A stretch of DNA of 64,000 nucleotides from assembly GCF_003018255.1 (NCBI RefSeq), contig NZ_CP027440.1; one strand, written 5' to 3'. Below, one piece after another: positions 2,537 through 47,150 of this stretch. A program made the translations under genes and the position numbers. Positions within the stretch are counted from its first letter, which is position 1; every line of letters begins with the position of its first letter. The stretch is from Escherichia coli (GTDB lineage Bacteria; Pseudomonadota; Gammaproteobacteria; Enterobacterales; Enterobacteriaceae). Below the pieces are notes generated by a model, which did not search any database, was not told the DNA's origin, and saw nothing but the letters and a program-made list of their open reading frames with translations.

Positions 2537-3391
2537 ATGGATGCTCTTAGCCGTTTGTTGATGCTTAACGCTCCACAAGGAACGATCGATAAGAATTGCG
2601 TGTTAGGAAGTGACTGGCAACTTCCACATGGTGCCGGGGAATTGTCGGTTATTCGTTGGCATGCGTTAACGCAAGGAGCGGCGAAGCTGGAAATGCCGAC
2701 GGGAGAGATTTTTAGATTACGCCCGGGAAATGTGGTCCTGCTACCACAAAATTCAGCTCATCGCCTGAGTCATGTCGATAATGAATCGACCTGTATTGTC
2801 TGTGGCACTCTTCGGCTGCAACATTCGGCGCGTTATTTTTTAACATCTTTGCCGGAAACGCTGTTTGTAGCACCAGTGAACCATAGCGTGGAATATAACT
2901 GGCTGAGGGAGGCGATCCCGTTTTTACAACAGGAATCCAGATCGGCAATGCCGGGAGTGGATGCTCTGTGTAGCCAGATCTGCGCTACATTCTTTACCCT
3001 CGCGGTGCGTGAGTGGATTGCACAGGTTAATACAGAGAAAAACATTCTCAGTTTGCTTCTGCATCCACGTCTTGGTGCGGTAATACAGCAAATGCTGGAA
3101 ATGCCAGGACACGCCTGGACCGTCGAATCGCTGGCCAGCATCGCCCACATGTCCCGGGCAAGTTTTGCCCAGCTTTTCCGTGATGTTTCCGGAACCACGC
3201 CGCTGGCTGTATTAACAAAGTTGCGTCTACAAATAGCGGCCCAGATGTTTTCCCGGGAAATGCTCCCTGTTGTGGTGATCGCTGAGTCAGTAGGCTATGC
3301 CAGTGAATCATCTTTTCACAAGGCGTTTGTCCGCGAGTTTGGTTGTACTCCGGGAGAATATCGGGAAAGGGTGAGACAGCTTGCACCCTGA
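2537..3391 (+). CDS. rclR: AraC-family transcriptional activator (redox-sensing), divergent from rclA
   Basis: ORF 2486..3391; ATG at 2537 preceded by AGGAG at 2526-2530; C-terminal AraC-type HTH; 284 aa. Confidence 0.85.
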   Translation: MDALSRLLMLNAPQGTIDKNCVLGSDWQLPHGAGELSVIRWHALTQGAAKLEMPTGEIFRLRPGNVVLLPQNSAHRLSHVDNESTCIVCGTLRLQHSARYFLTSLPETLFVAPVNHSVEYNWLREAIPFLQQESRSAMPGVDALCSQICATFFTLAVREWIAQVNTEKNILSLLLHPRLGAVIQQMLEMPGHAWTVESLASIAHMSRASFAQLFRDVSGTTPLAVLTKLRLQIAAQMFSREMLPVVVIAESVGYASESSFHKAFVREFGCTPGEYRERVRQLAP

Positions 3392-29428: not shown

Positions 29429-30811
29429 ATGAAAGAAAACAATAGCCGCCGTGAGTTTCTGAGCCAGAGCGGTAAGATGGTCACCGCCGCCGCGCTGTTT
29501 GGTACCTCTGTGCCGCTCGCCCATGCGGCAGTCTCTGGCACAATCCATTGCGACGCGAATAACACCATGAAAATCACTGACCCGCACTACTATCTCGACA
29601 ACGTGTTGCTGGAAACCGGTTTTGACTACGAAAATGGCGTGGCGGTGCAGACCCGCACGGCGCGCCAGACTGTGGAAATTCAGAACGGCAAAATTGTTGC
29701 CCTGCGCGAGAACAATCAGCATCCGGACGCCACGCTGCCGCACTATGACGCTGGCGGTAAGCTGATGCTGCCCACCACCCGCGACATGCATATTCATCTC
29801 GACAAAACCTTCTATGGCGGGCCGTGGCGCTCGCTCAATCGTCCGGCAGGCACCACCATCCAGGACATGATCAAACTCGAGCAGAAAATGCTGCCGGAGT
29901 TGCAACCGTACACTCAGGAAAGGGCGGAAAAACTGATTGATTTATTGCAGTCGAAAGGCACTACCATTGCCCGCAGCCACTGCAATATCGAACCGGTTTC
30001 CGGCCTGAAAAATCTGCAAAATTTGCAGGCGGTTCTGGCGCGACGTCAGGCGGGCTTCGAGTGTGAAATTGTCGCCTTCCCGCAGCACGGTTTGCTGCTG
30101 TCGAAATCAGAACCCTTAATGCGCGAAGCGATGCAGGCGGGGGCGCATTACGTCGGCGGGCTGGACCCGACCAGTGTTGATGGCGCGATGGAAAAATCCC
30201 TCGACACCATGTTCCAGATTGCGCTGGACTACGACAAAGGCGTCGATATTCACCTGCACGAAACCACTCCGGCAGGCGTGGCAGCCATCAATTATATGGT
30301 TGAAACGGTAGAGAAAACGCCACAGCTGAAGGGCAAGCTGACCATCAGCCACGCCTTCGCGCTGGCAACGCTCAACGAACAACAGGTAGATGAACTGGCG
30401 CACCGGATGGCGGCGCAGCAAATTTCTATCGCCTCGACGGTGCCGATTGGCACGCTACATATGCCGCTCAAACAGTTGCACGACAAAGGCGTAAAAGTGA
30501 TGACTGGCACCGACAGCGTTATCGACCACTGGTCGCCTTACGGCCTGGGCGACATGCTGGAAAAAGCCAATCTGTACGCGCAGCTCTATATTCGCCCTAA
30601 CGAACAGAATTTGTCCCGTTCGCTGTTTTTAGCCACTGGCGATGTATTGCCGCTGAATGAAAAAGGCGAGCGCGTGTGGCCCAAAGCGCAGGATGACGCC
30701 AGTTTTGTGCTGGTGGACGCCTCCTGTTCCGCCGAGGCGGTGGCGCGTATCTCGCCGAGAACGGCGACGTTCCATAAAGGGCAACTGGTGTGGGGGAGTG
30801 TGGCAGGTTGA
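29429..30811 (+). CDS. yahJ: amidohydrolase-superfamily deaminase with twin-arginine (Tat) signal peptide
   Basis: 460-aa ORF; N-terminus SRREFLSQSGKMVTAAALFGTSVPLAHA fits the Tat consensus; metal-binding HxH motif (HIHLD). Confidence 0.85.
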   Translation: MKENNSRREFLSQSGKMVTAAALFGTSVPLAHAAVSGTIHCDANNTMKITDPHYYLDNVLLETGFDYENGVAVQTRTARQTVEIQNGKIVALRENNQHPDATLPHYDAGGKLMLPTTRDMHIHLDKTFYGGPWRSLNRPAGTTIQDMIKLEQKMLPELQPYTQERAEKLIDLLQSKGTTIARSHCNIEPVSGLKNLQNLQAVLARRQAGFECEIVAFPQHGLLLSKSEPLMREAMQAGAHYVGGLDPTSVDGAMEKSLDTMFQIALDYDKGVDIHLHETTPAGVAAINYMVETVEKTPQLKGKLTISHAFALATLNEQQVDELAHRMAAQQISIASTVPIGTLHMPLKQLHDKGVKVMTGTDSVIDHWSPYGLGDMLEKANLYAQLYIRPNEQNLSRSLFLATGDVLPLNEKGERVWPKAQDDASFVLVDASCSAEAVARISPRTATFHKGQLVWGSVAG

Positions 30812-31770: not shown

Positions 31771-32757
31771 ATGATGAATAAACGTTTTGTTATCAATATG
31801 GTGTCTTCGCTGTTATTAGGCGCTGCGCTAATTTCTGCGCCGCTCCAGGCAGCGGAAAAAGTCGTGGTGAATATCTCTAAAGTCGATGGTATGCCGTGGT
31901 TTAATCGCATGGGCGAAGGTGTGGTTGAGGCGGGTAAAGCCTTTGGTGTTAATGCGTCACAGGTGGGGCCTTCAAGTACTGATGCTCCGCAACAGGTTAA
32001 AATTATTGAGGATTTAATCGCCCGTAAGGTTAATGCAATTACAATTGTGCCAAACGATGCCAACGTGCTGGAACCGGTATTCAAAAAAGCGCGAGATGCC
32101 GGAATTGTGGTTCTGACCAACGAATCCCCCGGTCAGCCAAGTGCTAACTGGGATATCGAAATCATTGATAACGAAAAATTTGCCGCTGAATATGTTGAAC
32201 ATATGGCGAAACGCATGGGTGGCAAGGGCGGCTATGTGATTTACGTGGGTAGTTTGACCGTGCCGCAGCATAACTTATGGGCTGACTTGCTGGTGAAATA
32301 CCAGAAAGAGCATTACCCGGATATGCATGAAGTTACCCGCCGCATGCCGGTTGCCGAGAGTGTGGATGACTCACGTCGTACCACACTGGACCTGATGAAA
32401 ACCTATCCTGACTTGAAAGCGGTTGTCTCCTTTGGTTCAAACGGTCCGATTGGCGCGGGACGTGCAGTGAAAGAGAAACGGGCGAAAAATAAAGTCGCAG
32501 TCTATGGCATGATGATCCCTTCACAGGCGGCATCACTGATTAAAAGTGGTGATATCACCGAAGGGATTACTTACGATCCGGCCTCTGCAGGTTACGCACT
32601 CGCGGCCGTCGCCAGCACGTTGCTGAAGGGTGAAGAGATCAAACCTGGATTAGAAATGCAGAATCTCGGTAAGGCCGACGTAGATATGGATAAGCGAATT
32701 ATCCGTTTCCATAAGGTATTACTGGTCAACAAAGACAATATCGACTCACTTTATTAA
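31771..32757 (+). CDS. periplasmic sugar-binding protein of a CUT2 ABC transporter (LsrB/RbsB-like)
   Basis: 328-aa ORF with Sec signal peptide (MMNKRFVINMVSSLLLGAALISAPLQAAEK); type I periplasmic binding-protein fold; C-terminus LLVNKDNIDSLY resembles LsrB-type proteins. Confidence 0.8.
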   Translation: MMNKRFVINMVSSLLLGAALISAPLQAAEKVVVNISKVDGMPWFNRMGEGVVEAGKAFGVNASQVGPSSTDAPQQVKIIEDLIARKVNAITIVPNDANVLEPVFKKARDAGIVVLTNESPGQPSANWDIEIIDNEKFAAEYVEHMAKRMGGKGGYVIYVGSLTVPQHNLWADLLVKYQKEHYPDMHEVTRRMPVAESVDDSRRTTLDLMKTYPDLKAVVSFGSNGPIGAGRAVKEKRAKNKVAVYGMMIPSQAASLIKSGDITEGITYDPASAGYALAAVASTLLKGEEIKPGLEMQNLGKADVDMDKRIIRFHKVLLVNKDNIDSLY

Positions 32758-32767
32758 TCCATTTCTT

Positions 32768-32792
32768 CGGGGCGAAAGCCCCGATTCTTATT
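32768..32792 (+). terminator. GNRA-loop hairpin plus U-tract between binding-protein and ATPase genes (candidate intra-operon attenuator)
   Basis: CGGGGC-GAAA-GCCCCG followed by ATTCTTATT. Confidence 0.5.
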
Positions 32793-32805
32793 GCCAGGGG
32801 ATGCT

Positions 32806-34290
32806 ATGGAAACCTTCCTTTCCCTTCGTCATATCAACAAAACGTTTCATGCCACGCGAGCGCTGCGCGATGTTTCTCTCGACTTTATGTCGGGTGAGGT
32901 GCACTGCCTTGCCGGGCAAAACGGCTGTGGTAAATCGACGTTGATTAAAATTATGTCCGGTGTTTATCGCCCGGATGAGGGGGCGGAAATTACGCTTGGT
33001 GGGAAAAACTGGTCAAAGCTGACACCCGCCGCTTCGGTGGCGCAGGGGATTCAGGTGATTTATCAGGACCTCTCTTTATTTCCTAACCTGAGTGTCTGGG
33101 AGAATATCGCCGTGAATCACTATCACCACGGTCTGTTTGTTAACCGCCGTCGTCTGCGTGAGGTGGCGCAGGCGGCAATGACCAGTATTAACGTCACATT
33201 GCCACTGGATACGCTCGTTTCTGAGCTTTCAATTGCCCGCTGTCAGCTGGTGGCAATTTGCCGTGCACTGGCGCAGGACGCACGGTTGATCGTGATGGAT
33301 GAACCAACCGCTTCGCTGACCCATCAGGAAGTGCAAGGGTTATTACAGGTGGTGCATCAATTGCGGGAACGCGGGATCTGCGTGGTCTTCGTCAGTCATC
33401 GTCTGGAAGAAGTGATGGAAGTTTCCGACCGTATTTCAGTGCTGAAAGATGGTGAGCTGGTCGGGACCTTTCCGGCCGCAGAGATGACCACAAAACAACT
33501 CAGTTTTCTGATGACCGGCCAGGAGTTCGAATATCAGGTACGAGAGTTGTGGCAGGGAAAATCCAGCACCCCGGTGCTGGAGGTGCGTAATTTAAGTCGT
33601 CATGGGGAATATCAAAATATTAACTTGCGGGTGGAAGCGGGCGAAGTGGTGTCGATTGTTGGCCTGCTTGGTGCGGGGCGCACGGAATTATGTCTGAGTC
33701 TGTTTGGTATGACCCGACCGGATGCTGGTGAGATCCTCATCAACGGTCAGCCGGTTACACTGCATAGTAACCAGGACGCCATCCGCCACGGTATTGGTTA
33801 TGTTTCGGAAGATCGCATGTCGCGCGGTTTGGTGATGGCGCAATCTATTGAAGACAACATCATTAGCACTGTTTTTCACAAGGTAAAAGATCGCTTCGGC
33901 TTTCTGAGTGAAGCTAAAGTGCGTGACCTGGTGGACAGGCTAATCAAGGCATTGACCATCAAAGTCTCTGACCCACATCTCCCGGTGAATACGCTTTCCG
34001 GGGGTAACGCGCAGCGAGTATCGATCGCCAAATGGCTGGCGATTGGGCCACGACTGTTGATTCTCGATAGCCCGACTGTCGGTGTTGATATCGCCAACAA
34101 AGCAGGAATATACGGCATTATCAGCGATCTGGCGGCTCATGGCATTGCGGTATTGATGATCTGCGATGAAATTGAAGAAGCGTGGTATCAAAGCCACCGG
34201 ATTTTGGTAATGCAAAAAGGTCAGATCACCCATAGCTTCCTGCCTGACAGCAGTTCTCAGGCCAGGATTGCGGAGGTGGTAAATGGCTGA
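32806..34290 (+). CDS. sugar ABC transporter ATP-binding protein with duplicated ABC domains (RbsA-like)
   Basis: ORF 32791..34290; ATG at 32806; Walker A GQNGCGKST in the first half and degenerate GLLGAGRTE in the second half; LSGG signatures. Confidence 0.85.
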   Translation: METFLSLRHINKTFHATRALRDVSLDFMSGEVHCLAGQNGCGKSTLIKIMSGVYRPDEGAEITLGGKNWSKLTPAASVAQGIQVIYQDLSLFPNLSVWENIAVNHYHHGLFVNRRRLREVAQAAMTSINVTLPLDTLVSELSIARCQLVAICRALAQDARLIVMDEPTASLTHQEVQGLLQVVHQLRERGICVVFVSHRLEEVMEVSDRISVLKDGELVGTFPAAEMTTKQLSFLMTGQEFEYQVRELWQGKSSTPVLEVRNLSRHGEYQNINLRVEAGEVVSIVGLLGAGRTELCLSLFGMTRPDAGEILINGQPVTLHSNQDAIRHGIGYVSEDRMSRGLVMAQSIEDNIISTVFHKVKDRFGFLSEAKVRDLVDRLIKALTIKVSDPHLPVNTLSGGNAQRVSIAKWLAIGPRLLILDSPTVGVDIANKAGIYGIISDLAAHGIAVLMICDEIEEAWYQSHRILVMQKGQITHSFLPDSSSQARIAEVVNG

Positions 34291-35254
34291 ACTGAAAAAA
34301 CGCCATGAATTCTGGCTGGCATTACTGATTGTGGTGCTGTTTGTTGGCCTTGCCTGGCGCAGCGACGAGTTTCTGACATTCGGTAATTTGTACGATCTCG
34401 CCAATAACTATGCCATGTTGACTATTCTCGCCTGTGGTTTGTTTGTGGTGTTAATTTCCGGTGGGATTGATATTTCGTTTCCGGCAATGACCATCATTGC
34501 GCAATACGGCATGGTGCTGTTGCTGCAAAAAATTGGTGGCAACTTTGCTGTTGCGTTTGCCCTGGCGGGCGGCATCGGCATTTTACTTGGCTTAATTAAC
34601 GCCTTACTGGTTAATCGCCTACGGGTGCCTTCTATCATCATCACTATCTCGACGCTGAATATTTTCTATGGCCTGCTGTTATGGTTGAGTAAAGGTGTGT
34701 GGCTGTACGACTTTCCGCCGTGGTTTGAGCAGGGGGTTATGTTGTTCAAGTACACCGATGCTGATGGCTATGACTATGGCCTTGGTCTACCGCTGATCGC
34801 CATGATTACGGTGGTGCTGCTAACAGCGTTTATCATGAATTTCACCAGTGTAGGGCGCAAAATTTATGCCCTTGGCGGGAACCGTGAATCCGCCAGTCGC
34901 ATCGGCTTTAGTGTGCTGAAACTGCAACTTTTCGTCTATGGCTATATGGGATTGATGTCTGGTGCTGCGGGTGTAGTGCAGTCGTGGACGGTGATGACTG
35001 TCGCCCCCGATTCTCTTCTGGGTTATGAGCTGACAGTACTGGCTGCGGTGGTGCTTGGCGGCACTAGTTTGCTCGGCGGGCGCGGCACGTTAACCGGTAC
35101 TTTGCTCGGCGTGGTGTTGTTGGCAGTGATGCAAAACGGGCTAAATTTATTGGGAGTCTCGTCTTACTGGCAAACATTGATCACCGGCATCATCATCGTT
35201 GCCAGCATTAGCGCCACGGCGTGGAGTCAGCATCAGAACCGGAGTCTGCTATGA
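34283..35254 (+). CDS. ABC transporter permease (RbsC/LsrC-like)
   Basis: 323-aa polytopic membrane protein; start overlaps the ATPase stop by 8 nt. Confidence 0.8.
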   Translation: MAELKKRHEFWLALLIVVLFVGLAWRSDEFLTFGNLYDLANNYAMLTILACGLFVVLISGGIDISFPAMTIIAQYGMVLLLQKIGGNFAVAFALAGGIGILLGLINALLVNRLRVPSIIITISTLNIFYGLLLWLSKGVWLYDFPPWFEQGVMLFKYTDADGYDYGLGLPLIAMITVVLLTAFIMNFTSVGRKIYALGGNRESASRIGFSVLKLQLFVYGYMGLMSGAAGVVQSWTVMTVAPDSLLGYELTVLAAVVLGGTSLLGGRGTLTGTLLGVVLLAVMQNGLNLLGVSSYWQTLITGIIIVASISATAWSQHQNRSLL

Positions 35255-36207
35255 AAAAATCGTGGCGTAACAACGTTGAGTTTTACTTGATCGGCCTGCT
35301 GGTGCTAACTGTTGCAGCCTTCAGCATTACTATGCCGGAGATTTTCTGGTCGATAAGTAATTTCCAGTCCGTCGCTTCGCAAATGCCCGTGCTGGGCATT
35401 CTGGCGTTGGCTATGGCGGTGACCATGCTTTGCGGTGGCATTAACTTGTCAATTATAGCCACTGCTAACGCCTGTTCACTGGTGATGGCGTGGGTGGCGA
35501 CTCAGTATCCACCGGGTATTGCTACGGTTGTCGCTACGCTGCTGGCGGGCGCTGGCGCGGCGGTGATAATCGGTTTATGTAACGGCGTATTGATTGCTGG
35601 TATTCGAGTGTCGCCAATTCTTGCAACACTCGGGATGATGACGTTGCTCAAAGGGGTAAATATTCTGGTGACAGGCGGTAGCGCCATTGCCAATTATCCC
35701 TCATGGGTGCTGTGGTTGAATCATGCACAGTGGTTCGGTATTCCGCTACCGATGTGGTTGTTTACCGCAGTGGCGCTGGGGCTGTGGATATTGCTGGAGA
35801 AAACGCCGCTCGGTAAATCCATTTATCTGATTGGTTCTAACGAACGAGCAACACTTTACTCCGGTATTAACACTCGTCGGGTGCTGATATGGGTGTATGT
35901 CATTTCCGCCTTGCTTTGTGCGGTAGCGGCATTTTTGATGATGTCGAAACTCAACTCGGCTAAGGCCTCTTATGGCGAATCGTACTTGCTGGTGTCAATC
36001 CTCGCGGCAGTACTCGGCGGGGTTAATCCGGACGGCGGCAGCGGGCGGATAATTGGTATGGTGCTGGCGCTGTTTCTTCTGCAAATTATTGAAAGCGGCT
36101 TCAATATTCTCGGTATAAGCCCCTACCTGACGATGGCCTTATGGGGAACGTTGCTGCTCTGTTTCATTCAGGCTCGCGGCATGTTAGGGCTGGATCGGGT
36201 GGTTTAA
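35251..36207 (+). CDS. ABC transporter permease (RbsC/LsrD-like)
   Basis: ORF 35221..36207; ATG at 35251 overlaps the upstream stop (ATGA); 318 aa, polytopic. Confidence 0.8.
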   Translation: MKKSWRNNVEFYLIGLLVLTVAAFSITMPEIFWSISNFQSVASQMPVLGILALAMAVTMLCGGINLSIIATANACSLVMAWVATQYPPGIATVVATLLAGAGAAVIIGLCNGVLIAGIRVSPILATLGMMTLLKGVNILVTGGSAIANYPSWVLWLNHAQWFGIPLPMWLFTAVALGLWILLEKTPLGKSIYLIGSNERATLYSGINTRRVLIWVYVISALLCAVAAFLMMSKLNSAKASYGESYLLVSILAAVLGGVNPDGGSGRIIGMVLALFLLQIIESGFNILGISPYLTMALWGTLLLCFIQARGMLGLDRVV

Positions 36208-36293: not shown

Positions 36294-37343
36294 ATGAAGA
36301 TCAAAGCTGTTGGTGCATATTCCGCTAAACAACCACTTGAACCGATGGATATCACCCGGCGTGAACCGCGACCGCATGATGTCAAAATCGAAATCGCTTA
36401 CTGTGGCGTCTGCCATTCCGATCTCCACCAGGTCCGTTCGGAGTGGGCGGGGACGGTTTACCCCTGCGTGCCGGGTCATGAAATTGTGGGGCGCGTGGTA
36501 GCTGTTGGTGATCAGGTAGAAAAATATGCGCCGGGCGATCTGGTTGGTGTCGGCTGCATTGTCGACAGTTGTAAACATTGCGAAGAGTGTGAAGACGGGC
36601 TGGAAAACTACTGTGATCACATGACCGGCACCTATAACTCGCCGACGCCGGACGAACCGGGCCATACTCTGGGCGGCTACTCACAACAGATCGTCGTTCA
36701 TGAGCGATATGTTCTGCGTATTCGTCACCCGCAAGAGCACCTGGCGGCGGTGGCTCCTTTGTTGTGTGCAGGGATCACCACATACTCGCCGCTACGTCAC
36801 TGGCAGGCCGGGCCGGGTAAAAAAGTGGGCGTGGTCGGCATCGGCGGTCTGGGACATATGGGGATCAAGCTGGCCCACGCGATGGGGGCGCATGTGGTGG
36901 CATTTACCACTTCTGAGTCAAAACGCGAAGCGGCAAAAGCCCTGGGGGCCGATGAAGTTGTTAACTCACGCAATGCCGATGAGATGGCGGCTCATCTCAA
37001 GAGTTTCGATTTCATTTTGAATACAGTAGCTGCGCCACATAATCTCGACGATTTTACCACCTTGCTGAAGCGTGATGGCACCATGACGCTGGTTGGTGCG
37101 CCTGCGACACCGCATAAATCGCCGGAAGTTTTCAACCTGATCATGAAACGCCGCGCGATAGCCGGCTCTATGATTGGCGGCATTCCAGAAACACAGGAGA
37201 TGCTCGATTTTTGCGCCGAACATGGCATCGTGGCTGATATAGAGATGATTCGGGCCGATCAAATTAATGAAGCCTATGAGCGAATGCTGCGTGGTGATGT
37301 GAAATATCGTTTTGTTATCGATAATCGCACACTAACAGACTGA
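36294..37343 (+). CDS. yahK: NADPH-dependent aldehyde reductase, Zn-dependent ADH family
   Basis: 349 aa; zinc-ligand motifs GHEIVG and CxxCxxC (CKHCEECEDG), Rossmann GIGGLGHMG. Confidence 0.9.
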   Translation: MKIKAVGAYSAKQPLEPMDITRREPRPHDVKIEIAYCGVCHSDLHQVRSEWAGTVYPCVPGHEIVGRVVAVGDQVEKYAPGDLVGVGCIVDSCKHCEECEDGLENYCDHMTGTYNSPTPDEPGHTLGGYSQQIVVHERYVLRIRHPQEHLAAVAPLLCAGITTYSPLRHWQAGPGKKVGVVGIGGLGHMGIKLAHAMGAHVVAFTTSESKREAAKALGADEVVNSRNADEMAAHLKSFDFILNTVAAPHNLDDFTTLLKRDGTMTLVGAPATPHKSPEVFNLIMKRRAIAGSMIGGIPETQEMLDFCAEHGIVADIEMIRADQINEAYERMLRGDVKYRFVIDNRTLTD

Positions 37344-37778
37344 AAAAATTAATAAACATCCTGTGGTTTAACATATTAACTTCGCTCCACTTAACTTTTT
37401 AGTTAAGGAGAGCGAAATAATATCAAAGTAGTGGTAAACCTATAGCGTAAATTCAGATTGTTAAATTAACTCCACTACTTTACACGTTAGTTATGAGCGA
37501 TTTCTGATAGTGTCTGGTTTAATCAGAGCTTTATTATCTGCGACGTTTATTTTTATTTAATAGAGCCACCTGCAAGTTGTTATTCCACCAGAGAGTGAAT
37601 CGCAAAGCAGGTAATCATTTCATCTGTATATCTGTATGCCAACTGGCATTCCATCTCTTTTTTCGCCGATATTTTGTTGTGATCGGCGACACTTCGCTTA
37701 AAAAAGCATCAGCAGTGGTTTCGCAGCTATGCGGTGTATAAAAAATGATCTCATGCAGATGTTTTGTGAATGTGTGGG

Positions 37779-37806
37779 TTGACATTCATATGAAAAAAAT
37801 CATAAT
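37779..37806 (+). promoter_or_regulatory. near-consensus sigma70 promoter (TTGACA-16-CATAAT), probably yahM promoter
   Basis: TTGACA at 37779-37784, 16-bp spacer, CATAAT at 37801-37806. Confidence 0.5.
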
Positions 37807-37964
37807 TCCATCATGTTTGTGTGGGGTCTTTTCTGTATCTTACGCATCGCACTCAAGCCTGACAGAAAATATGCTGTAAGGCTCATATCAAAAACCGCCA
37901 TTAGCTCATCAGGAAGAGCAGACGACAACCAGGATTGTTGTATGGTACGGGGTTCGAGGCCTCG

Positions 37965-38210
37965 ATGGCGGTCCAGCTTTTCAAAACTCTTCTGAATCAG
38001 ATCCCCTTATTATCATTCCTGCAAAGTGGAACATTGCCATTGTTTGGCTATTCAGGACGGGTCAGACCAATGAAAAAAGCCCACACAGGGGAGAGTGGGC
38101 TGAAATGGGAAGCTAAAGACTCAAGTAAACTTATCGGAAATAAGGACCACGCATTACGGGGGCTATCATCGCCGATGGTCGGGATTCGGCAAATCAGGTT
38201 GATTACGTAG
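37965..38210 (+). CDS. yahM: small protein of unknown function
   Basis: ORF 37935..38210; ATG at 37965 gives 81 aa (MAVQLFKTLL...); ends 16 bp before the convergent yahN stop, matching the recalled K-12 arrangement. Confidence 0.55.
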   Translation: MAVQLFKTLLNQIPLLSFLQSGTLPLFGYSGRVRPMKKAHTGESGLKWEAKDSSKLIGNKDHALRGLSSPMVGIRQIRLIT

Positions 38211-38226
38211 AGAGTAAATTATCTGC

Positions 38227-38898
38227 TCACCGCTGCGTCACCCCTTCGTAAATCAGGCGTAGCGCGAATACACCAATAATTGCACCAATAACCCGACTGG
38301 CAACGCGTTGCATACGCCCATAAGCACGACGCACTGCGGGCAAAGAAAACGCCTGACTAAGAAAAACGCGCCAGATAACTGATGCGAGCACAATCCCCGC
38401 CCAGGCCATTAAACGTGCCCATGTTGGTGTTTCGGCATTTAATGTTACTGAGAAAATACTAATAAAAAATAAAACGGTTTGCGGGTTAGAGAGATCGGTA
38501 ATTAATCCGCGACGAAAAAAGACATACCAGGGGGCGTTAATCGGTTGTTGTAGTGTGCTCATTTGCGGTGTTGACTGGCGGCGCATGCTGCACCACGCAA
38601 ACCATAAGAGATAAGCGCCGCCGACGATTCTGATAAGCGAAAAAATCTCCTCACACTGCGTAATTAGCGTTGCAAGACCAAACAAACCCAACCCGGAATA
38701 AAATGCATCGCCCAGCGCCACGCCCAGTCCGGTCAGCACTCCTGCGCGTCGACCGGAAGCCAGGCTGGTTTGTACTACCACAAAGAGATTGGCTCCCGGA
38801 TTAAAAAAAGTAATCACGAACAGTCCTACGGTCAGGTAAACGGCGTGCAAAGGATCCATAGTGATTTCATCCATAAATAAGTGAACTAACTGCATCAT
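38227..38898 (-). CDS. yahN: LysE/RhtB-family amino acid exporter
   Basis: 223-aa membrane protein with LysE-type topology. Confidence 0.8.
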   Translation of the reverse strand: MMQLVHLFMDEITMDPLHAVYLTVGLFVITFFNPGANLFVVVQTSLASGRRAGVLTGLGVALGDAFYSGLGLFGLATLITQCEEIFSLIRIVGGAYLLWFAWCSMRRQSTPQMSTLQQPINAPWYVFFRRGLITDLSNPQTVLFFISIFSVTLNAETPTWARLMAWAGIVLASVIWRVFLSQAFSLPAVRRAYGRMQRVASRVIGAIIGVFALRLIYEGVTQR

Positions 38899-39044: not shown

Positions 39045-39320
39045 ATGAAAATAATCTCTAAAATGTTAGTTGGTGCGTTAGCGTTTGCCGTTACCAATGT
39101 CTATGCCGCAGAATTAATGACCAAAGCGGAATTTGAAAAGGTTGCATCGCAATATGAAAAAATAGGTGATATTTCAACCAGTAATGAAATGTCGACCGCA
39201 GATGCGAAAGAAGATTTGATCAAAAAAGCCGATGAAAAAGGGGCTGATGTGTTGGTACTGACCTCTGGTCAAACTGACAATAAGATCCACGGCACGGCAA
39301 ATATTTATAAGAAGAAGTAA
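39045..39320 (+). CDS. yahO: DUF1471-family periplasmic stress protein
   Basis: 91-aa ORF with signal peptide ([21 protein letters not shown]). Confidence 0.8.
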
Positions 39321-39420: not shown

Positions 39421-41007
39421 TCAGCTTTTCAGCCGCCGCCAGAACGTCGTCCGGCTGATACCTAAATAATTCGCCGCTGCTGTTTTATCGCCATTAAATT
39501 TTTCCAGTGCCTGTTGTGCTGTCAGCAAGCCTGGAATGGGAGTCTTCGCCGACTCGCGTGCCAGTTCCGGCAGTAGCAGCTGCAAAAATTGCGGCGTTAA
39601 ATCCGGCGTCGATTCCACACTTAAAAACAGCGCCAGTCGTTCCATCATATTGCGCAGTTCACGAATATTGCCCGGCCAGTCGTAGTGCACCAGCATGGTT
39701 TCGCTTGCCTGTAACCCCTGGCGTAATGCGGCAGCAAACGGGGCGGAGAGCGCCGCCAGAGACACTTTCAAAAAGCTTTCCGCCAGCGGCAGAATATCCG
39801 CCACCCGCTCGCGCAGTGGTGGCAATTGCAGACGCAAAATACTCAGCCGATAAAACAGATCACGGCGAAACTGCCCTTGCCGCATATCTTCTTCCAGATT
39901 GCAGTGAGTGGCGCTAATGATTCGCACATCCACCGGAACAGGCTGATGCCCGCCGACGCGGGTGACCTCTTTTTCTTCCAGCACCCGCAGCAGCCGAGTC
40001 TGCAACGGCAGCGGCATTTCGCCTATCTCGTCAAGAAACAGCGTGCCACCGTGGGCGATTTCGAACAGCCCGGCGCGACCTCCGCGTCGCGAGCCGGTAA
40101 ACGCCCCTTCCTCATAGCCAAACAGCTCCGCTTCCAGCAGCGATTCGGCAATCGCTCCGCAGTTGACGGCAACAAACGGATGCGACTTTTTGCCCTGTCG
40201 CGCATCGTGGCGGGCAAAATATTCCCGATGAATCGCCTGGGCCGCCAGCTCTTTGCCCGTCCCCGTTTCCCCCTCAATCAACACCGCCGCACTGGAGCGG
40301 GCATACAGCAAAATAGTCTGCCGCACCTGTTCCATCTGTGGTGATTGACCGAGCATATCGCCCAGCACGTAACGAGTACGCAGGGCGTTACGGGTAGCAT
40401 CGTGAGTGTTATGGCGTAACGACATGCGCGTCATATCCAGCGCATCGCTGAACGCCTGGCGCACGGTGGCGGCGGAATAGATAAAAATTCCGGTCATTCC
40501 GGCTTCTTCTGCCAGATCGGTAATCAGCCCCGCGCCGACCACCGCTTCGGTGCCGTTGGCTTTCAGCTCGTTAATCTGCCCGCGCGCGTCTTCTTCGGTA
40601 ATGTAGCTACGTTGATCGAGGCGCAAATTAAAGGTTTTTTGAAACGCCACCAGTGCCGGAATAGTTTCCTGATAAGTGACAACGCCGATAGAAGAGGTGA
40701 GCTTTCCGGCTTTTGCCAGAGCCTGTAACACATCGTAGCCGCTCGGTTTAATCAAAATAACCGGCACTGACAGGCGACTTTTAAGATATGCGCCGTTAGA
40801 GCCAGCAGCGATGATGGCGTCGCAGCGTTCGTTTGCCAGTTTTTTGCGGATGTAGGTCACCGCTTTTTCAAAGCCAAGCTGAATAGGGGTGATATTCGCC
40901 AGGTGATCAAACTCGAGACTGATATCGCGAAACAGCTCGAACAGCCGCGTTACAGATACCGTCCAGATCACCGGTTTGTCGTCATTCAGCCGTGGTGGAT
41001 GTGCCAT
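39421..41007 (-). CDS. prpR: sigma54-dependent transcriptional activator of propionate catabolism
   Basis: ORF 39421..41019; 528 aa from [12 protein letters not shown]; AAA+ sigma54-interaction domain ([20 protein letters not shown]-like) and C-terminal HTH. Confidence 0.9.
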
Positions 41008-41050
41008 AGCGCACCGCAAAGTTAAGAAACCGAATATTGGGTTTAGTCTT

Positions 41051-44989: not shown

Positions 44990-46876
44990 ATGTCTTTTAG
45001 CGAATTTTATCAGCGTTCGATTAACGAACCGGAGAAGTTCTGGGCCGAGCAGGCCCGGCGTATTGACTGGCAGACGCCCTTTACGCAAACGCTTGATCAC
45101 AGCAATCCGCCGTTTGCCCGTTGGTTTTGTGAAGGCCGAACCAACTTGTGTCACAACGCTATCGACCGCTGGCTGGAGAAACAGCCAGAGGCGCTGGCGC
45201 TGATTGCCGTCTCTTCGGAAACAGAAGAAGAGCGCACCTTTACCTTTCGTCAGCTGCATGACGAAGTGAACGCGGTGGCCTCAATGTTGCGTTCATTGGG
45301 TGTGCAGCGTGGCGATCGGGTGCTGGTGTATATGCCGATGATTGCCGAAGCACATATTACCCTGCTGGCTTGCGCGCGCATTGGCGCTATTCACTCGGTG
45401 GTGTTTGGGGGATTTGCCTCGCACAGCGTGGCGGCGCGAATTGATGATGCTAAACCGGTGCTGATTGTCTCGGCTGATGCCGGAGCGCGCGGTGGCAAAA
45501 TCATTCCCTATAAAAAATTGCTCGACGATGCGATAAGTCAGGCGCAGCATCAGCCGCGCCACGTTTTACTGGTGGATCGCGGACTGGCGAAAATGGCGCG
45601 CGTCAGCGGGCGGGATGTCGATTTCGCGTCGTTGCGCCATCAACACATCGGCGCGCGGGTGCCGGTGGCATGGCTGGAATCCAACGAAACCTCCTGCATT
45701 CTCTACACCTCCGGCACGACCGGCAAACCTAAAGGTGTGCAGCGTGATGTCGGCGGATATGCGGTGGCGCTGGCGACCTCGATGGACACCATTTTTGGCG
45801 GCAAAGCGGGCGGCGTGTTCTTTTGTGCTTCGGATATCGGCTGGGTGGTAGGGCATTCGTATATCGTTTACGCGCCGCTGCTGGCGGGGATGGCGACTAT
45901 CGTTTACGAAGGATTGCCGACCTGGCCGGACTGCGGCGTGTGGTGGAAAATTGTCGAGAAATATCAGGTTAGCCGCATGTTCTCAGCGCCGACCGCCATT
46001 CGCGTGCTGAAAAAATTCCCTACCGCTGAAATTCGCAAACACGATCTTTCGTCGCTGGAAGTGCTCTATCTGGCTGGAGAACCGCTGGACGAGCCGACCG
46101 CCAGTTGGGTGAGCAATACGCTGGATGTGCCGGTCATCGACAACTACTGGCAGACCGAATCCGGCTGGCCGATTATGGCGATTGCTCGCGGTCTGGATGA
46201 CAGACCGACGCGTCTGGGAAGCCCCGGCGTGCCGATGTATGGCTATAACGTGCAGTTGCTCAATGAAGTCACCGGCGAACCGTGTGGCGTCAATGAGAAA
46301 GGGATGCTGGTAGTGGAGGGGCCATTGCCGCCAGGCTGTATTCAAACCATCTGGGGCGACGACGACCGCTTTGTGAAGACGTACTGGTCGCTGTTTTCCC
46401 GTCCGGTGTACGCCACTTTTGACTGGGGCATCCGCGATGCTGACGGTTATCACTTTATTCTCGGGCGCACTGACGATGTGATTAACGTTGCCGGACATCG
46501 GCTGGGTACGCGTGAGATTGAAGAGAGTATCTCCAGTCATCCGGGCGTTGCCGAAGTGGCGGTGGTTGGGGTGAAAGATGCGCTGAAAGGGCAGGTGGCG
46601 GTGGCGTTTGTCATTCCGAAAGAGAGCGACAGTCTGGAAGACCGTGAGGTGGCGCACTTGCAAGAGAAGGCAATTATGGCGCTGGTAGACAGCCAGATTG
46701 GCAACTTTGGCCGCCCGGCGCACGTCTGGTTTGTCTCGCAATTGCCAAAAACGCGATCCGGAAAAATGCTGCGCCGCACGATCCAGGCGATTTGCGAAGG
46801 ACGCGATCCTGGAGATCTGACGACCATTGATGATCCGGCGTCGTTGGATCAGATCCGCCAGGCGATGGAAGAGTAG
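44990..46876 (+). CDS. prpE: propionyl-CoA synthetase
   Basis: 628 aa; acyl-CoA synthetase AMP-binding motif (YTSGTTGKPKG). Confidence 0.9.
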   Translation: MSFSEFYQRSINEPEKFWAEQARRIDWQTPFTQTLDHSNPPFARWFCEGRTNLCHNAIDRWLEKQPEALALIAVSSETEEERTFTFRQLHDEVNAVASMLRSLGVQRGDRVLVYMPMIAEAHITLLACARIGAIHSVVFGGFASHSVAARIDDAKPVLIVSADAGARGGKIIPYKKLLDDAISQAQHQPRHVLLVDRGLAKMARVSGRDVDFASLRHQHIGARVPVAWLESNETSCILYTSGTTGKPKGVQRDVGGYAVALATSMDTIFGGKAGGVFFCASDIGWVVGHSYIVYAPLLAGMATIVYEGLPTWPDCGVWWKIVEKYQVSRMFSAPTAIRVLKKFPTAEIRKHDLSSLEVLYLAGEPLDEPTASWVSNTLDVPVIDNYWQTESGWPIMAIARGLDDRPTRLGSPGVPMYGYNVQLLNEVTGEPCGVNEKGMLVVEGPLPPGCIQTIWGDDDRFVKTYWSLFSRPVYATFDWGIRDADGYHFILGRTDDVINVAGHRLGTREIEESISSHPGVAEVAVVGVKDALKGQVAVAFVIPKESDSLEDREVAHLQEKAIMALVDSQIGNFGRPAHVWFVSQLPKTRSGKMLRRTIQAICEGRDPGDLTTIDDPASLDQIRQAMEE

Positions 46877-47150
46877 GTCGGATAAGGCGCTCGCGCCGCA
46901 TCCGACACCGTGCGCAGATGCCTGATGCGACGCTGACGCGTCTTATCATGCCTACAGGCCTGAACCGTAGGTCGGATAAGGCGCTCGCGCCGCATCCGAC
47001 ACCGTGCGCAGATGCCTGATGCGACGCTGACGCGTCTTATCATGCCTACAGGCCTGAACCGTAGGTCGGATAAGGCGCTCGCGCCGCATCCGACACCATG
47101 CGCCGATGCCTGATGCGACGCTTACGCGTCTTATCATGCCTACCCACTGT
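46873..47150. repeat. tandem REP/BIME array, 3 units of 94 bp
   Basis: Unit starts at 46873, 46967, 47061 (GTAGGTCGGATAAGGCGCTCGCGCCGCATCCGACA...); yields three spurious minus-strand ORFs beginning MIRRVSVASGI. Confidence 0.9.

Follow-up and report, generated by a model that had tools for sequence, protein, structure and literature searches.

Shiga toxin (Stx) phages and lambdoid phages harbour a tRNA cluster, ileZ-argN-argO, downstream of Q and upstream of stx (e.g. AP012540, 933W-type phages). Its middle member, argN, is in Stx phages a normal tRNA-Arg(UCG) gene, scoring 53.6 bits with the Rfam tRNA model. Relatives of argN are also found in phiP27, in a Yersinia phage, in IncY and IncC plasmids, in plasmids of Cedecea and Enterobacter and in about 145 Salmonella megaplasmids, and most of these other copies have aberrant anticodon arms and fall below the tRNA model. 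RNAs that resemble tRNAs without decoding are known from other settings, such as the tRNA-like domain of transfer-messenger RNA (tmRNA), the Y-RNA-like YrlA of Salmonella and the tRNA-like 3′ ends of plant viruses. We report here on a tRNA-like element that lies between yahK and yahM in the chromosome of Escherichia coli. The DNA analysed, hereafter called the window, is a stretch of 64,000 nucleotides (nt) from contig NZ_CP027440.1 (assembly GCF_003018255.1), and the element occupies positions 37895-37975 on the + strand. We consider it rather likely that a unit made of a promoter, a leader and this element is under selection, probably as a non-coding RNA, that the yahM reading frame is not, and that the gap in which the unit lies consists of two spacers joined by a deletion.

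The element is 81 nt long, with an encoded CCA, and is the sole tRNA called by ARAGORN in the 64-kb window. When 37895-37975 was folded alone, the minimum free energy (MFE) structure was a cloverleaf. It comprises an acceptor stem of 7 base pairs (bp; CCGCCAU/AUGGCGG), a 4-bp D stem with an 8-nt loop, a variable region of 6 nt, a T arm (CGGGG/CCUCG) with the loop UUCGAGG, and a 3′ end in which a discriminator U is followed by the encoded CCA. The canonical nucleotides of tRNA tertiary structure are present, namely U8, A14, G18-G19, A21 and, in the T loop, U54-U55-C56-R57-A58. The “anticodon” arm is non-canonical, with a 7-bp stem and a 6-nt loop, CCAGGA. A canonical 5-bp stem with a 7-nt loop (U33, purine 37) was not found in the element; the alternative arm drawn by ARAGORN needs 4 extra nt, has A33 and U37, and yields an “anticodon at position 38”.

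The covariance-model search of the leader suggested by the initial annotation of this DNA gave no Rfam match, and it was ARAGORN that called the tRNA: no Rfam family was significant in 37250-38300 or 37880-37990 (E up to 10), and over the whole window nothing reached the gathering threshold (29 bits) of the tRNA model, RF00005. Because this model does not match, the Prokaryotic Genome Annotation Pipeline (PGAP) annotates nothing at 37895-37975. The element is apparently undescribed, as no mention of it was found in the searchable literature or in RefSeq annotation (EcoCyc and GtRNAdb being outside the scope), and the literature on argN/ileZ and on b0327 gave nothing relevant. A role as integrase attachment site was considered but not supported: the DNA that varies is on the promoter side rather than at the 3′ end of the tRNA-like sequence, and repeats are absent.

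Over ~105 nt, positions 37871-37975 are 72-86% identical to argN of Stx/lambdoid phages (BLAST E-values of 1e-13 to 1e-21), and this homology takes in the last ~24 nt preceding argN; the copies on the other phages and on plasmids are related to the element to a similar degree. From these alignments, we infer that the element descends from the phage tRNA gene argN. Among 12 members of the argN family, the pair positions of the acceptor, D and T stems were 97.9% paired, and in 4 of the 12 the pair 7-72 had undergone a compensatory change from U-A to C-G. Anticodon loops vary within the family on an otherwise shared body, the Stx2a phage having UCG, TL-2011c (L107) apparently UGG, Evi (L108) a loop containing UUU and YeP1 (L096) UUG; in this lineage of phage tRNAs, it is the anticodon arm that evolves fast. 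We also examined whether the leader preceding the element could be a degenerate ileZ and rejected this, the two being not alignable (z = 0.35-1.6) apart from the last ~24 nt. In the IncY (L092 3313-3519 and 4540-4662) and Cedecea (L093 4084-4288) plasmids, the argN-like cluster is followed by STnc100 (154 and 94 bits), and in the IncY plasmid by isrC as well (150 bits).

The transcript that contains the element starts at a sigma-70 promoter, TTGACA-16-CATAAT, at 37779-37806 (+). It matches the consensus at 11 of 12 positions and is the sole site of this grade in the window; shuffling the gap produced one in 159 of 5000 cases (3.2%). The start site, 37813, is taken from published K-12 data, the promoter sequence being identical there. 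A clone said to hold the “entire 5′ UTR” (untranslated region) of yahM begins at ATGTTTGTGTGGGG, which corresponds to window position 37813, 7 nt past the −10 (Adams et al. 2021, PMC7815308, supplement 4). A Reg-Seq preprint (10.1101/2025.05.13.653802) confirmed a yahM start site, lying ~15 nt away from an earlier high-throughput call, and reported IHF as a repressor of the yahM promoter. Both hexamers are in place, together with a start mapped in the literature and a spacer of 16 nt, within the 16-18 nt expected of sigma-70 promoters. The initial annotation, which had proposed a near-consensus sigma-70 promoter at 37779-37806 to be checked against start-site data, was right on this point. On the K-12 map (U00096.3), taking Term-seq position 345390 as −14 from the yahM start, transcription begins at ~345252, the element covers 345334-345414 and the yahM ATG is at 345404. 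Promoter and leader are identical in K-12 and are for this reason unrelated to the loss of yahL described below; the promoter is a genuine one, known before this work, and does not depend on that deletion. A phage PR′-type late promoter was rejected as a candidate, since no phage similarity was found upstream of 37871.

From 37813, the leader of the yahM transcript measures 152 nt and includes the tRNA-like domain, in keeping with the proposal of the initial annotation that the transcript may carry a long 5′ leader or a small RNA. Its first 82 nt (37813-37894) fold with an MFE of −23.1 kcal/mol (z = −3.0), and two hairpins are predicted within 37814-37883 (+), at 37814-37851 and 37856-37883. 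Folds of the whole transcript (37813-38235), on either strand, were no better than those of shuffled sequences (z about −0.4), so that the leader and the tRNA-like part alone stand out.

Conservation of the unit was assessed with outgroups reached through YahN homologues, namely E. albertii (L097, L098), an Escherichia lineage represented by L099 and L100, and another one (L101). Two further diverged lineages are used below, L089 and that of L085, the latter known from three independent assemblies (L084-L086). ARAGORN found the same tRNA-like element in every outgroup (L097, L098, L099, L100 and L101). In an eight-sequence Escherichia alignment, which served for both element and promoter, the block 37891-37975 was identical in 7 of the 8 sequences, the draft assembly L086 having 1 change. 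Not one of the 81 nt of the element differs among E. coli, L085, L089, E. albertii, L099 and L101. For comparison, synonymous divergence between E. coli and L085 is ~0.44 in yahK and yahN, and E. albertii is ~80% identical over a 1.2-kb aligned block including yahN. The −35 hexamer was invariant in 8 of 8 Escherichia sequences, and the −10 was CATAAT in 7 of them and CATATT in E. albertii. Within E. coli, a 90-nt probe covering the element is matched imperfectly by about 5140 of 5170 genomes, apparently with one base different (one mismatch in each of the matches sampled); this agrees with the G that the window itself carries at 37976, directly after the CCA. This G is found in the window and in only 29 of ~5170 genomes, the base being A in K-12 and in every other aligned lineage. 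Variation in the neighbouring 90 nt of leader was seen in 2206 genomes.

Homology across lineages begins at ~37757, 22 nt upstream of the −35. In L099-L101, it stops at 37984 and resumes at ~38192, with promoter, leader and element abutting yahN and most of the yahM open reading frame (ORF) gone. The conserved unit thus amounts to ~228 bp (37757-37984), comprising the promoter, the start at 37813, the 82-nt leader with its two hairpins and the 81-nt element. It is specific to Escherichia, because Citrobacter and Salmonella bongori, which keep the gene order prpR-yahO-yahN, do not have it next to yahN: only 57-80 nt follow yahN there, and no tRNA was called.

The yahM frame, annotated as an 81-amino-acid (aa) ORF at 37965-38210 (+), does not show this constancy. 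Pairs formed by the window, K-12, TOK-001 and L089 differ in yahM by 0-1 synonymous and 1-9 nonsynonymous changes; with counts this small, the nonsynonymous to synonymous polymorphism ratio (pN/pS) was at least 1.5 (1.5, 2.2 or undefined) in 5 of the 6 pairs, and 0.31 in the window-TOK pair, which has one change of each kind. For the same pairs, pN/pS was 0.03-0.08 in yahK, as in an ordinary coding gene, and 0.03-0.10 across yahK and yahN, and synonymous divergence was 0-0.017 in yahM against 0.04-0.18 in yahK and yahN, a consistent contrast. In L084-L086, yahM meets a stop after 11 codons and carries indels of +4, −1 and −1. In L099, L100 and L101, 207 nt of it are absent (window 37985-38191). 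In E. albertii, 37976-38068 has diverged, and 38068-38178 remains conserved although the lengths of its indels are not divisible by three. Frameshifted alleles were also present in E. coli ED1a, 83972 and Q5. No Pfam, NCBIfam, PHROG or PADLOC family matched YahM, and YahM “homologues” of 58-65% identity were set aside as frameshift variants from error-rich assemblies. Neither purifying selection on the frame, nor its retention in relatives, nor membership of a family was therefore found, and the annotated yahM, which evolves in the manner of non-coding DNA, is, by these comparisons, probably not a conserved protein-coding gene. Substitutions and indels together indicate that selection preserves the unit, and not the yahM frame.

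In the reading that we favour, the promoter would make a non-coding RNA in which the tRNA-like domain is the part that functions. Because the anticodon arm has a 7-bp stem and a 6-nt loop, decoding by the element is improbable; instead, it may mimic tRNA, or be processed by the enzymes of tRNA maturation. Others have shown in K-12 that transcription runs on, antisense, into the yahN 3′ UTR and is stopped by Rho; a strong Rho termination region lies inside the yahM ORF there, at position 345585, about window 38146, with a Rho score of 6.2 (PMC7815308). A more specific proposal goes further, and we put it forward as possible, although on balance doubtful: the RNA would be a domesticated, non-decoding tRNA mimic derived from argN, proper to Escherichia and expressed from a strong promoter of its own, the true product of the yahM locus, acting in trans or governing yahN. 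Such a mimic could be a decoy or a regulator of a tRNA-modifying or tRNA-cleaving enzyme, possibly in phage-host conflict.

Several observations weigh against a selected, tRNA-like non-coding RNA. The Rfam tRNA model RF00005 had no match at E up to 10 in 37250-38300 or 37880-37990. Being invariant within Escherichia, the element offers no covariation by which its fold could be judged there, and a stable, processed tRNA-like RNA is a prediction from sequence and fold. In the leader hairpins, several pairs are kept by G-U changes and one by a compensatory change, and the total is not above the shuffle control. In the curated Term-seq table (PMC7815308), there is no 3′ end at the CCA (37975); the sole 3′ end within the element falls in the T arm, at 37951, 10 nt past the 7-bp stem, and is more readily explained by a decay intermediate than by a mature tRNA-like species. 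Downstream of 37985, some of the conservation may be due to the 3′ UTR of yahN, on the opposite strand. Finally, most E. coli genomes have kept the yahM ORF intact, and a small protein restricted to this lineage is possible.

This last point is the starting point of an alternative that we hold to be unlikely, in which yahM is a real small-protein gene and the tRNA-like fold is a leader acting in cis, which hides the ribosome-binding site (RBS) and start codon and couples translation to Rho-dependent attenuation. The disposition of the signals is suitable, as the RBS, GAGG (37956-37959, in the T loop), and the ATG (37965, first triplet of the 3′ acceptor strand) are caught up in the T and acceptor stems, and yahM mRNA is condition-responsive. 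A fusion holding the yahM 5′ UTR and ORF was built by others (PMC7815308, supplement 4), and the list of fusions that rise more than 2-fold in the rhoR66S mutant names “yhaM” (PMC7815308); the plasmid and primer tables of that work hold yahM and no yhaM, and the name is probably a misprint for yahM. The fate of the ORF speaks the other way: it is gone in L099 and L101 and broken in L084-L086 while leader and element are unchanged, its pN/pS is at least 1, and natural E. coli strains carry it frameshifted. A riboregulator, moreover, would not need 81 invariant nt.

Alternatively, the unit might serve to drive convergent transcription into yahN, by antisense or excludon control, the tRNA-like domain being a stabilising or processing module. 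yahN (38227-38898, −; ORF and RefSeq annotation) encodes a LysE-family exporter. It is the sole constant neighbour of the unit, always convergent, throughout the Escherichia lineages covered (E. coli, L085, E. albertii, L099, L101); the CCA of the element comes to lie right against the 3′ end of yahN in L099 and L101, and yahM-yahN has been listed as a convergent excludon (PMC12288877). We nevertheless judge this account improbable. In K-12, Rho halts most transcripts at ~38146, short of the yahN coding region; antisense interference needs no exact conservation of a cloverleaf; and Citrobacter and Salmonella keep yahN without the unit.

On the yahN strand, a hairpin resembling an intrinsic terminator, AGCCCAC-N10-GTGGGCT-TTTTT with a T6 tract, was read from the sequence at 38073-38101 (−) and is also present in the minus-strand fold. 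It is likely the end of a ~154-nt yahN 3′ UTR (38073-38226, −) that overlaps yahM in antisense, and this UTR could be the source of a 3′-UTR-derived small RNA. The block is conserved in E. albertii and deleted in L099-L101, and its role on the minus strand would account for part of the nucleotide constraint in 38068-38225. The A6/T6 run that it contains is the site at which the yahM frameshift alleles arise.

We now turn to the gap itself. yahK, which borders it on the left (36294-37343, +; 349-aa ORF, annotated as a NADPH-dependent aldehyde reductase in RefSeq strain JNEC-KY177), runs to 37343; with the annotated yahM beginning at 37965, this leaves 621 bp. The gap has a GC content of 38%, versus 51% for the whole window. 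Its longest ORFs are 44-60 aa, and inspection of the 621 bp revealed none resembling YahL. In JNEC-KY177, which is 100% identical over the probe, yahK is likewise followed directly by yahM in the annotation. The initial annotation had remarked on a yahK-yahM gap of ~620 bp without yahL, and alignment to the K-12 region, which it proposed as a check, supports this: the window lacks 835 bp there, which contain yahL. In the K-12-type reference record (L001), yahK is at 595-1644, yahL at 1887-2702 and yahM at 3115-3360. By BLAST and MAFFT, window 37200-37565 corresponds to L001 1501-1880 with 93% identity and small indels, and window 37566-38300 to L001 2716-3450 with 98.4% identity. The segment missing from the window, L001 1881-2715, comprises the yahL coding sequence (CDS) together with the 6 nt before it and the 13 nt after it.

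The junction of this 835-bp deletion, at 37565/37566, is blunt and reads ...TTTAAGAGAG|CCACCTGC..., as it does in the yahL-less strain Q5 (...TTTAAGAGAG|CCACCTGC...). In yahL-positive genomes, the left border reads ...TTTAAGAGAG|ATCGCGATG... and the right border ...AAGGGTT|CCACCTGC.... Comparison of 4 yahL-positive and 2 yahL-negative sequences disclosed no direct repeats, microhomology or element ends at the borders (...AAGAGAG|CCACC...), nor did the borders show target-site duplications or terminal inverted repeats of the kind left by a mobile element or by site-specific excision. The gap would accordingly be made of the yahK-yahL and yahL-yahM spacers of K-12, fused by this deletion. Its left part (37344-37565) would hold the stem-loop of the yahK 3′ end followed by a yahL 5′ region left without purpose. 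This relic of the old yahK-yahL spacer (37420-37565, +) aligns to L001 1725-1880 and stops 6 nt short of the former position of the yahL ATG. To its right, the former yahL-yahM spacer (37566-37756, +) is AT-rich and poorly conserved, with 98% identity to K-12 and 60-73% to the diverged lineage L085.

A total of 5426 complete E. coli genomes were searched. The yahK-yahM locus was matched in 5176 of them and yahL in 4076, and the window junction (80-nt probe, at least 80% covered) in 1072. Among genomes with the locus, yahL is thus present in ~79% and absent in ~21%. Carriers of the yahL-less junction include an ST1193 isolate and JCM 20135, both of which we take to belong to phylogroup B2. The deletion is old and common to about one fifth of E. 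coli genomes. In its haplotype, the left flank has lost a further 2, 1 and 11 nt through three small deletions. A second, independent route to the loss of yahL was seen in H31 (NZ_CP075480.1), where an IS1 insertion interrupts the gene.

To judge from the alignments, the window state is a derived deletion and an ordinary polymorphism, because diverged Escherichia lineages carry yahL at the same site and because the yahL-specific 5′ region is retained in the window. Divergent alleles of yahL were found at the same place relative to yahK and the yahM region in L089 (87% aa identity) and in L084-L086 (79%); yahK of these lineages is 96.6% and 88.6% identical to that of the window, respectively, versus 98.2% between the window and K-12. 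The converse polarity, with the window as the ancestral empty site and yahL inserted in K-12-type strains, appears very unlikely to us. It could draw on the nature of yahL, an AT-rich orphan (39% GC versus 51% for the window) without homologues outside Escherichia, on the closeness with which the indel tracks the gene borders, and on E. albertii, which lacks both yahK and yahL at this site. Yet the two outgroup lineages that hold yahL at the same position are farther from both E. coli alleles than these are from each other, the upstream region specific to yahL is still in the window, and the borders have no insertion signatures. In being an AT-rich orphan restricted to one genus, yahL is like other accessory orphan genes of E. 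coli that are polymorphic for presence or absence. Its loss differs from the excision of an island or an insertion sequence, as it consists of a single blunt deletion nearly matching the CDS.

YahL forms 10 clusters among 5.8 billion proteins, all from Escherichia or from metagenome or sequencing-run assemblies. A distant homologue of 208 aa (25% identity, E = 6e-9) is encoded in E. albertii between yahN and yahO (L097 3663-4306), and 60 nt of the yahL 5′ region (37493-37552) recur upstream of this gene, which suggests that orphans of the yahL type move or are exchanged together with their 5′ region. Neither YahL nor the E. albertii protein matched a Pfam, NCBIfam, PADLOC or PHROG family. Another seemingly distant YahL homologue, P0009 (locus L088), was discarded as E. 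coli with assembly errors, its DNA being 95% identical.

The inverted repeats that the initial annotation had placed near 37390-37490 exist, at 37381-37416 and 37425-37481, but they do not belong to the transcript of the promoter described above, being associated with the yahK 3′ end. The first, I1 (37381-37416, +), forms a stem-loop of −19.6 kcal/mol at the 3′ end of yahK mRNA, 38 nt past the stop codon; its 16-nt arms (37381-37396 and 37401-37416) are 88% complementary. I1 is kept through G-U and compensatory changes in K-12, L089 and L085, and follows yahJ in E. albertii, which has neither yahK nor yahL at this site. It does not have the form of an intrinsic terminator, the stem being followed by AUAAUAUC with no U-tract, and a terminator scan was empty. 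In K-12, Term-seq 3′ ends were mapped 163 and 165 nt upstream of the yahL ATG, that is, 3-5 nt past the I1 stem, with a Rho termination region just downstream of I1 (Adams et al. 2021, PMC7815308). I1 is best read as a hairpin that protects the yahK mRNA 3′ end after Rho termination. The second repeat (37425-37481) is a perfect 10-bp one, AAAGTAGTGG/CCACTACTTT, with arms at 37425-37434 and 37472-37481. It is perfect only in the yahL-less haplotype, as the product of the 1-nt and 11-nt deletions, which are shared with strain Q5 and absent from yahL-positive genomes, and nothing in these comparisons indicates a function for it.

The DNA that flanks the unit is a hot spot of gene turnover. On its promoter side, L099/L100 (5455-9633) and L101 (1103-5289) carry a pair of genes encoding a SNF2 helicase and an EH_Signature protein, a pair which we take to resemble ZorD and ZorC of the Zorya defence system. 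In that lineage, an 878-aa gene lies between yahO and yahN, with a faint autotransporter-domain match in L100. In the window, yahN is followed by yahO (39045-39320, +) and prpR (39421-41019, −). Between yahJ (29429-30811) and yahK, a four-gene ATP-binding cassette (ABC) transporter occupies 31771-36207; the sizes of its ORFs (328, 499, 323 and 328 aa) suggest a binding protein, an ATPase and two permeases, the annotation confirming the last permease only. K-12 lacks this transporter and has a 75-nt remnant of the last permease (L001 434-508), annotated as a pseudogene. Since the outgroups L084-L086 and L089 carry the transporter, K-12 appears to be the deleted state at that locus. Elsewhere in the window, two arrays derived from repetitive extragenic palindromes (REP) match the Rfam family naRNA4 (60-72 bits), one at 28207-28369 (−), between the ORFs 26721-28139 and 28469-29419, and one at 46876-47140 (+), right after an ORF ending at 46876.

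The absence of yahL and the promoter are thus ordinary features, already documented. The element is of more interest, in that it suggests that yahM, a gene of the K-12 “y-ome” repeatedly called completely uncharacterised, is annotated as the wrong kind of gene, the selected unit being a promoter with a tRNA-like RNA. The closest system is phage argN. Its acceptor stem (CCGCCAU/AUGGCGG) is the same as in the element, and so are its D arm, the loop UUCGAG of its T arm, its discriminator U and its encoded CCA. Whereas the phage gene has an ordinary anticodon arm, with a 5-bp stem and a 7-nt loop bearing UCG, the element has the 7-bp stem and the 6-nt loop CCAGGA and obtains no score with the tRNA model. 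Unlike phage argN, the element is also solitary and chromosomal, has its own sigma-70 promoter and 82-nt leader, and is fixed in the whole genus; it is not in a phage or plasmid tRNA cluster downstream of Q, and lies between yahN and either yahK or yahL. That it should be a functionless fossil of a phage tRNA cluster, conserved by accident, is hardly credible: its phage ancestry, its failure with the tRNA covariance model and the similar degenerate copies left unannotated in phages and plasmids would fit, but it has accumulated no substitution in 81 nt across lineages whose synonymous sites are ~44% different, is essentially invariant in ~5170 genomes in which the neighbouring 90 nt vary, and has survived deletions on both sides.

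The degenerate argN-like pseudo-tRNAs of phiP27, IncY phage-plasmids, pESI-like megaplasmids of S. Infantis and plasmids of Cedecea and Enterobacter offer a second comparison. They combine the acceptor, D and T framework of the element with anticodon arms that are aberrant, those of Cedecea and E. cancerogenus having 6-nt loops too (CAUGGU and CCAGGU), and all are below the Rfam tRNA threshold and most unannotated. They differ from the Escherichia copy in lying on mobile elements, usually straight after a tRNA-Met/Ile(CAU), and in being 15-25% apart from one another, whereas the Escherichia copy is frozen. The latter would thus be a case in which a tRNA gene from a phage lost its normal anticodon loop and then became fixed and frozen across a bacterial genus, and the aberrant plasmid and phage copies point to a wider, unannotated class of tRNA mimics discarded by standard tRNA finders. 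The element has no sequence or covariance-model match to the Rfam families of the tRNA mimics mentioned at the outset; compared with them on general grounds, it has in common a cloverleaf or L-shaped mimicry of tRNA, intact acceptor and T arms and a CCA end, together with the lack of a normal anticodon loop.

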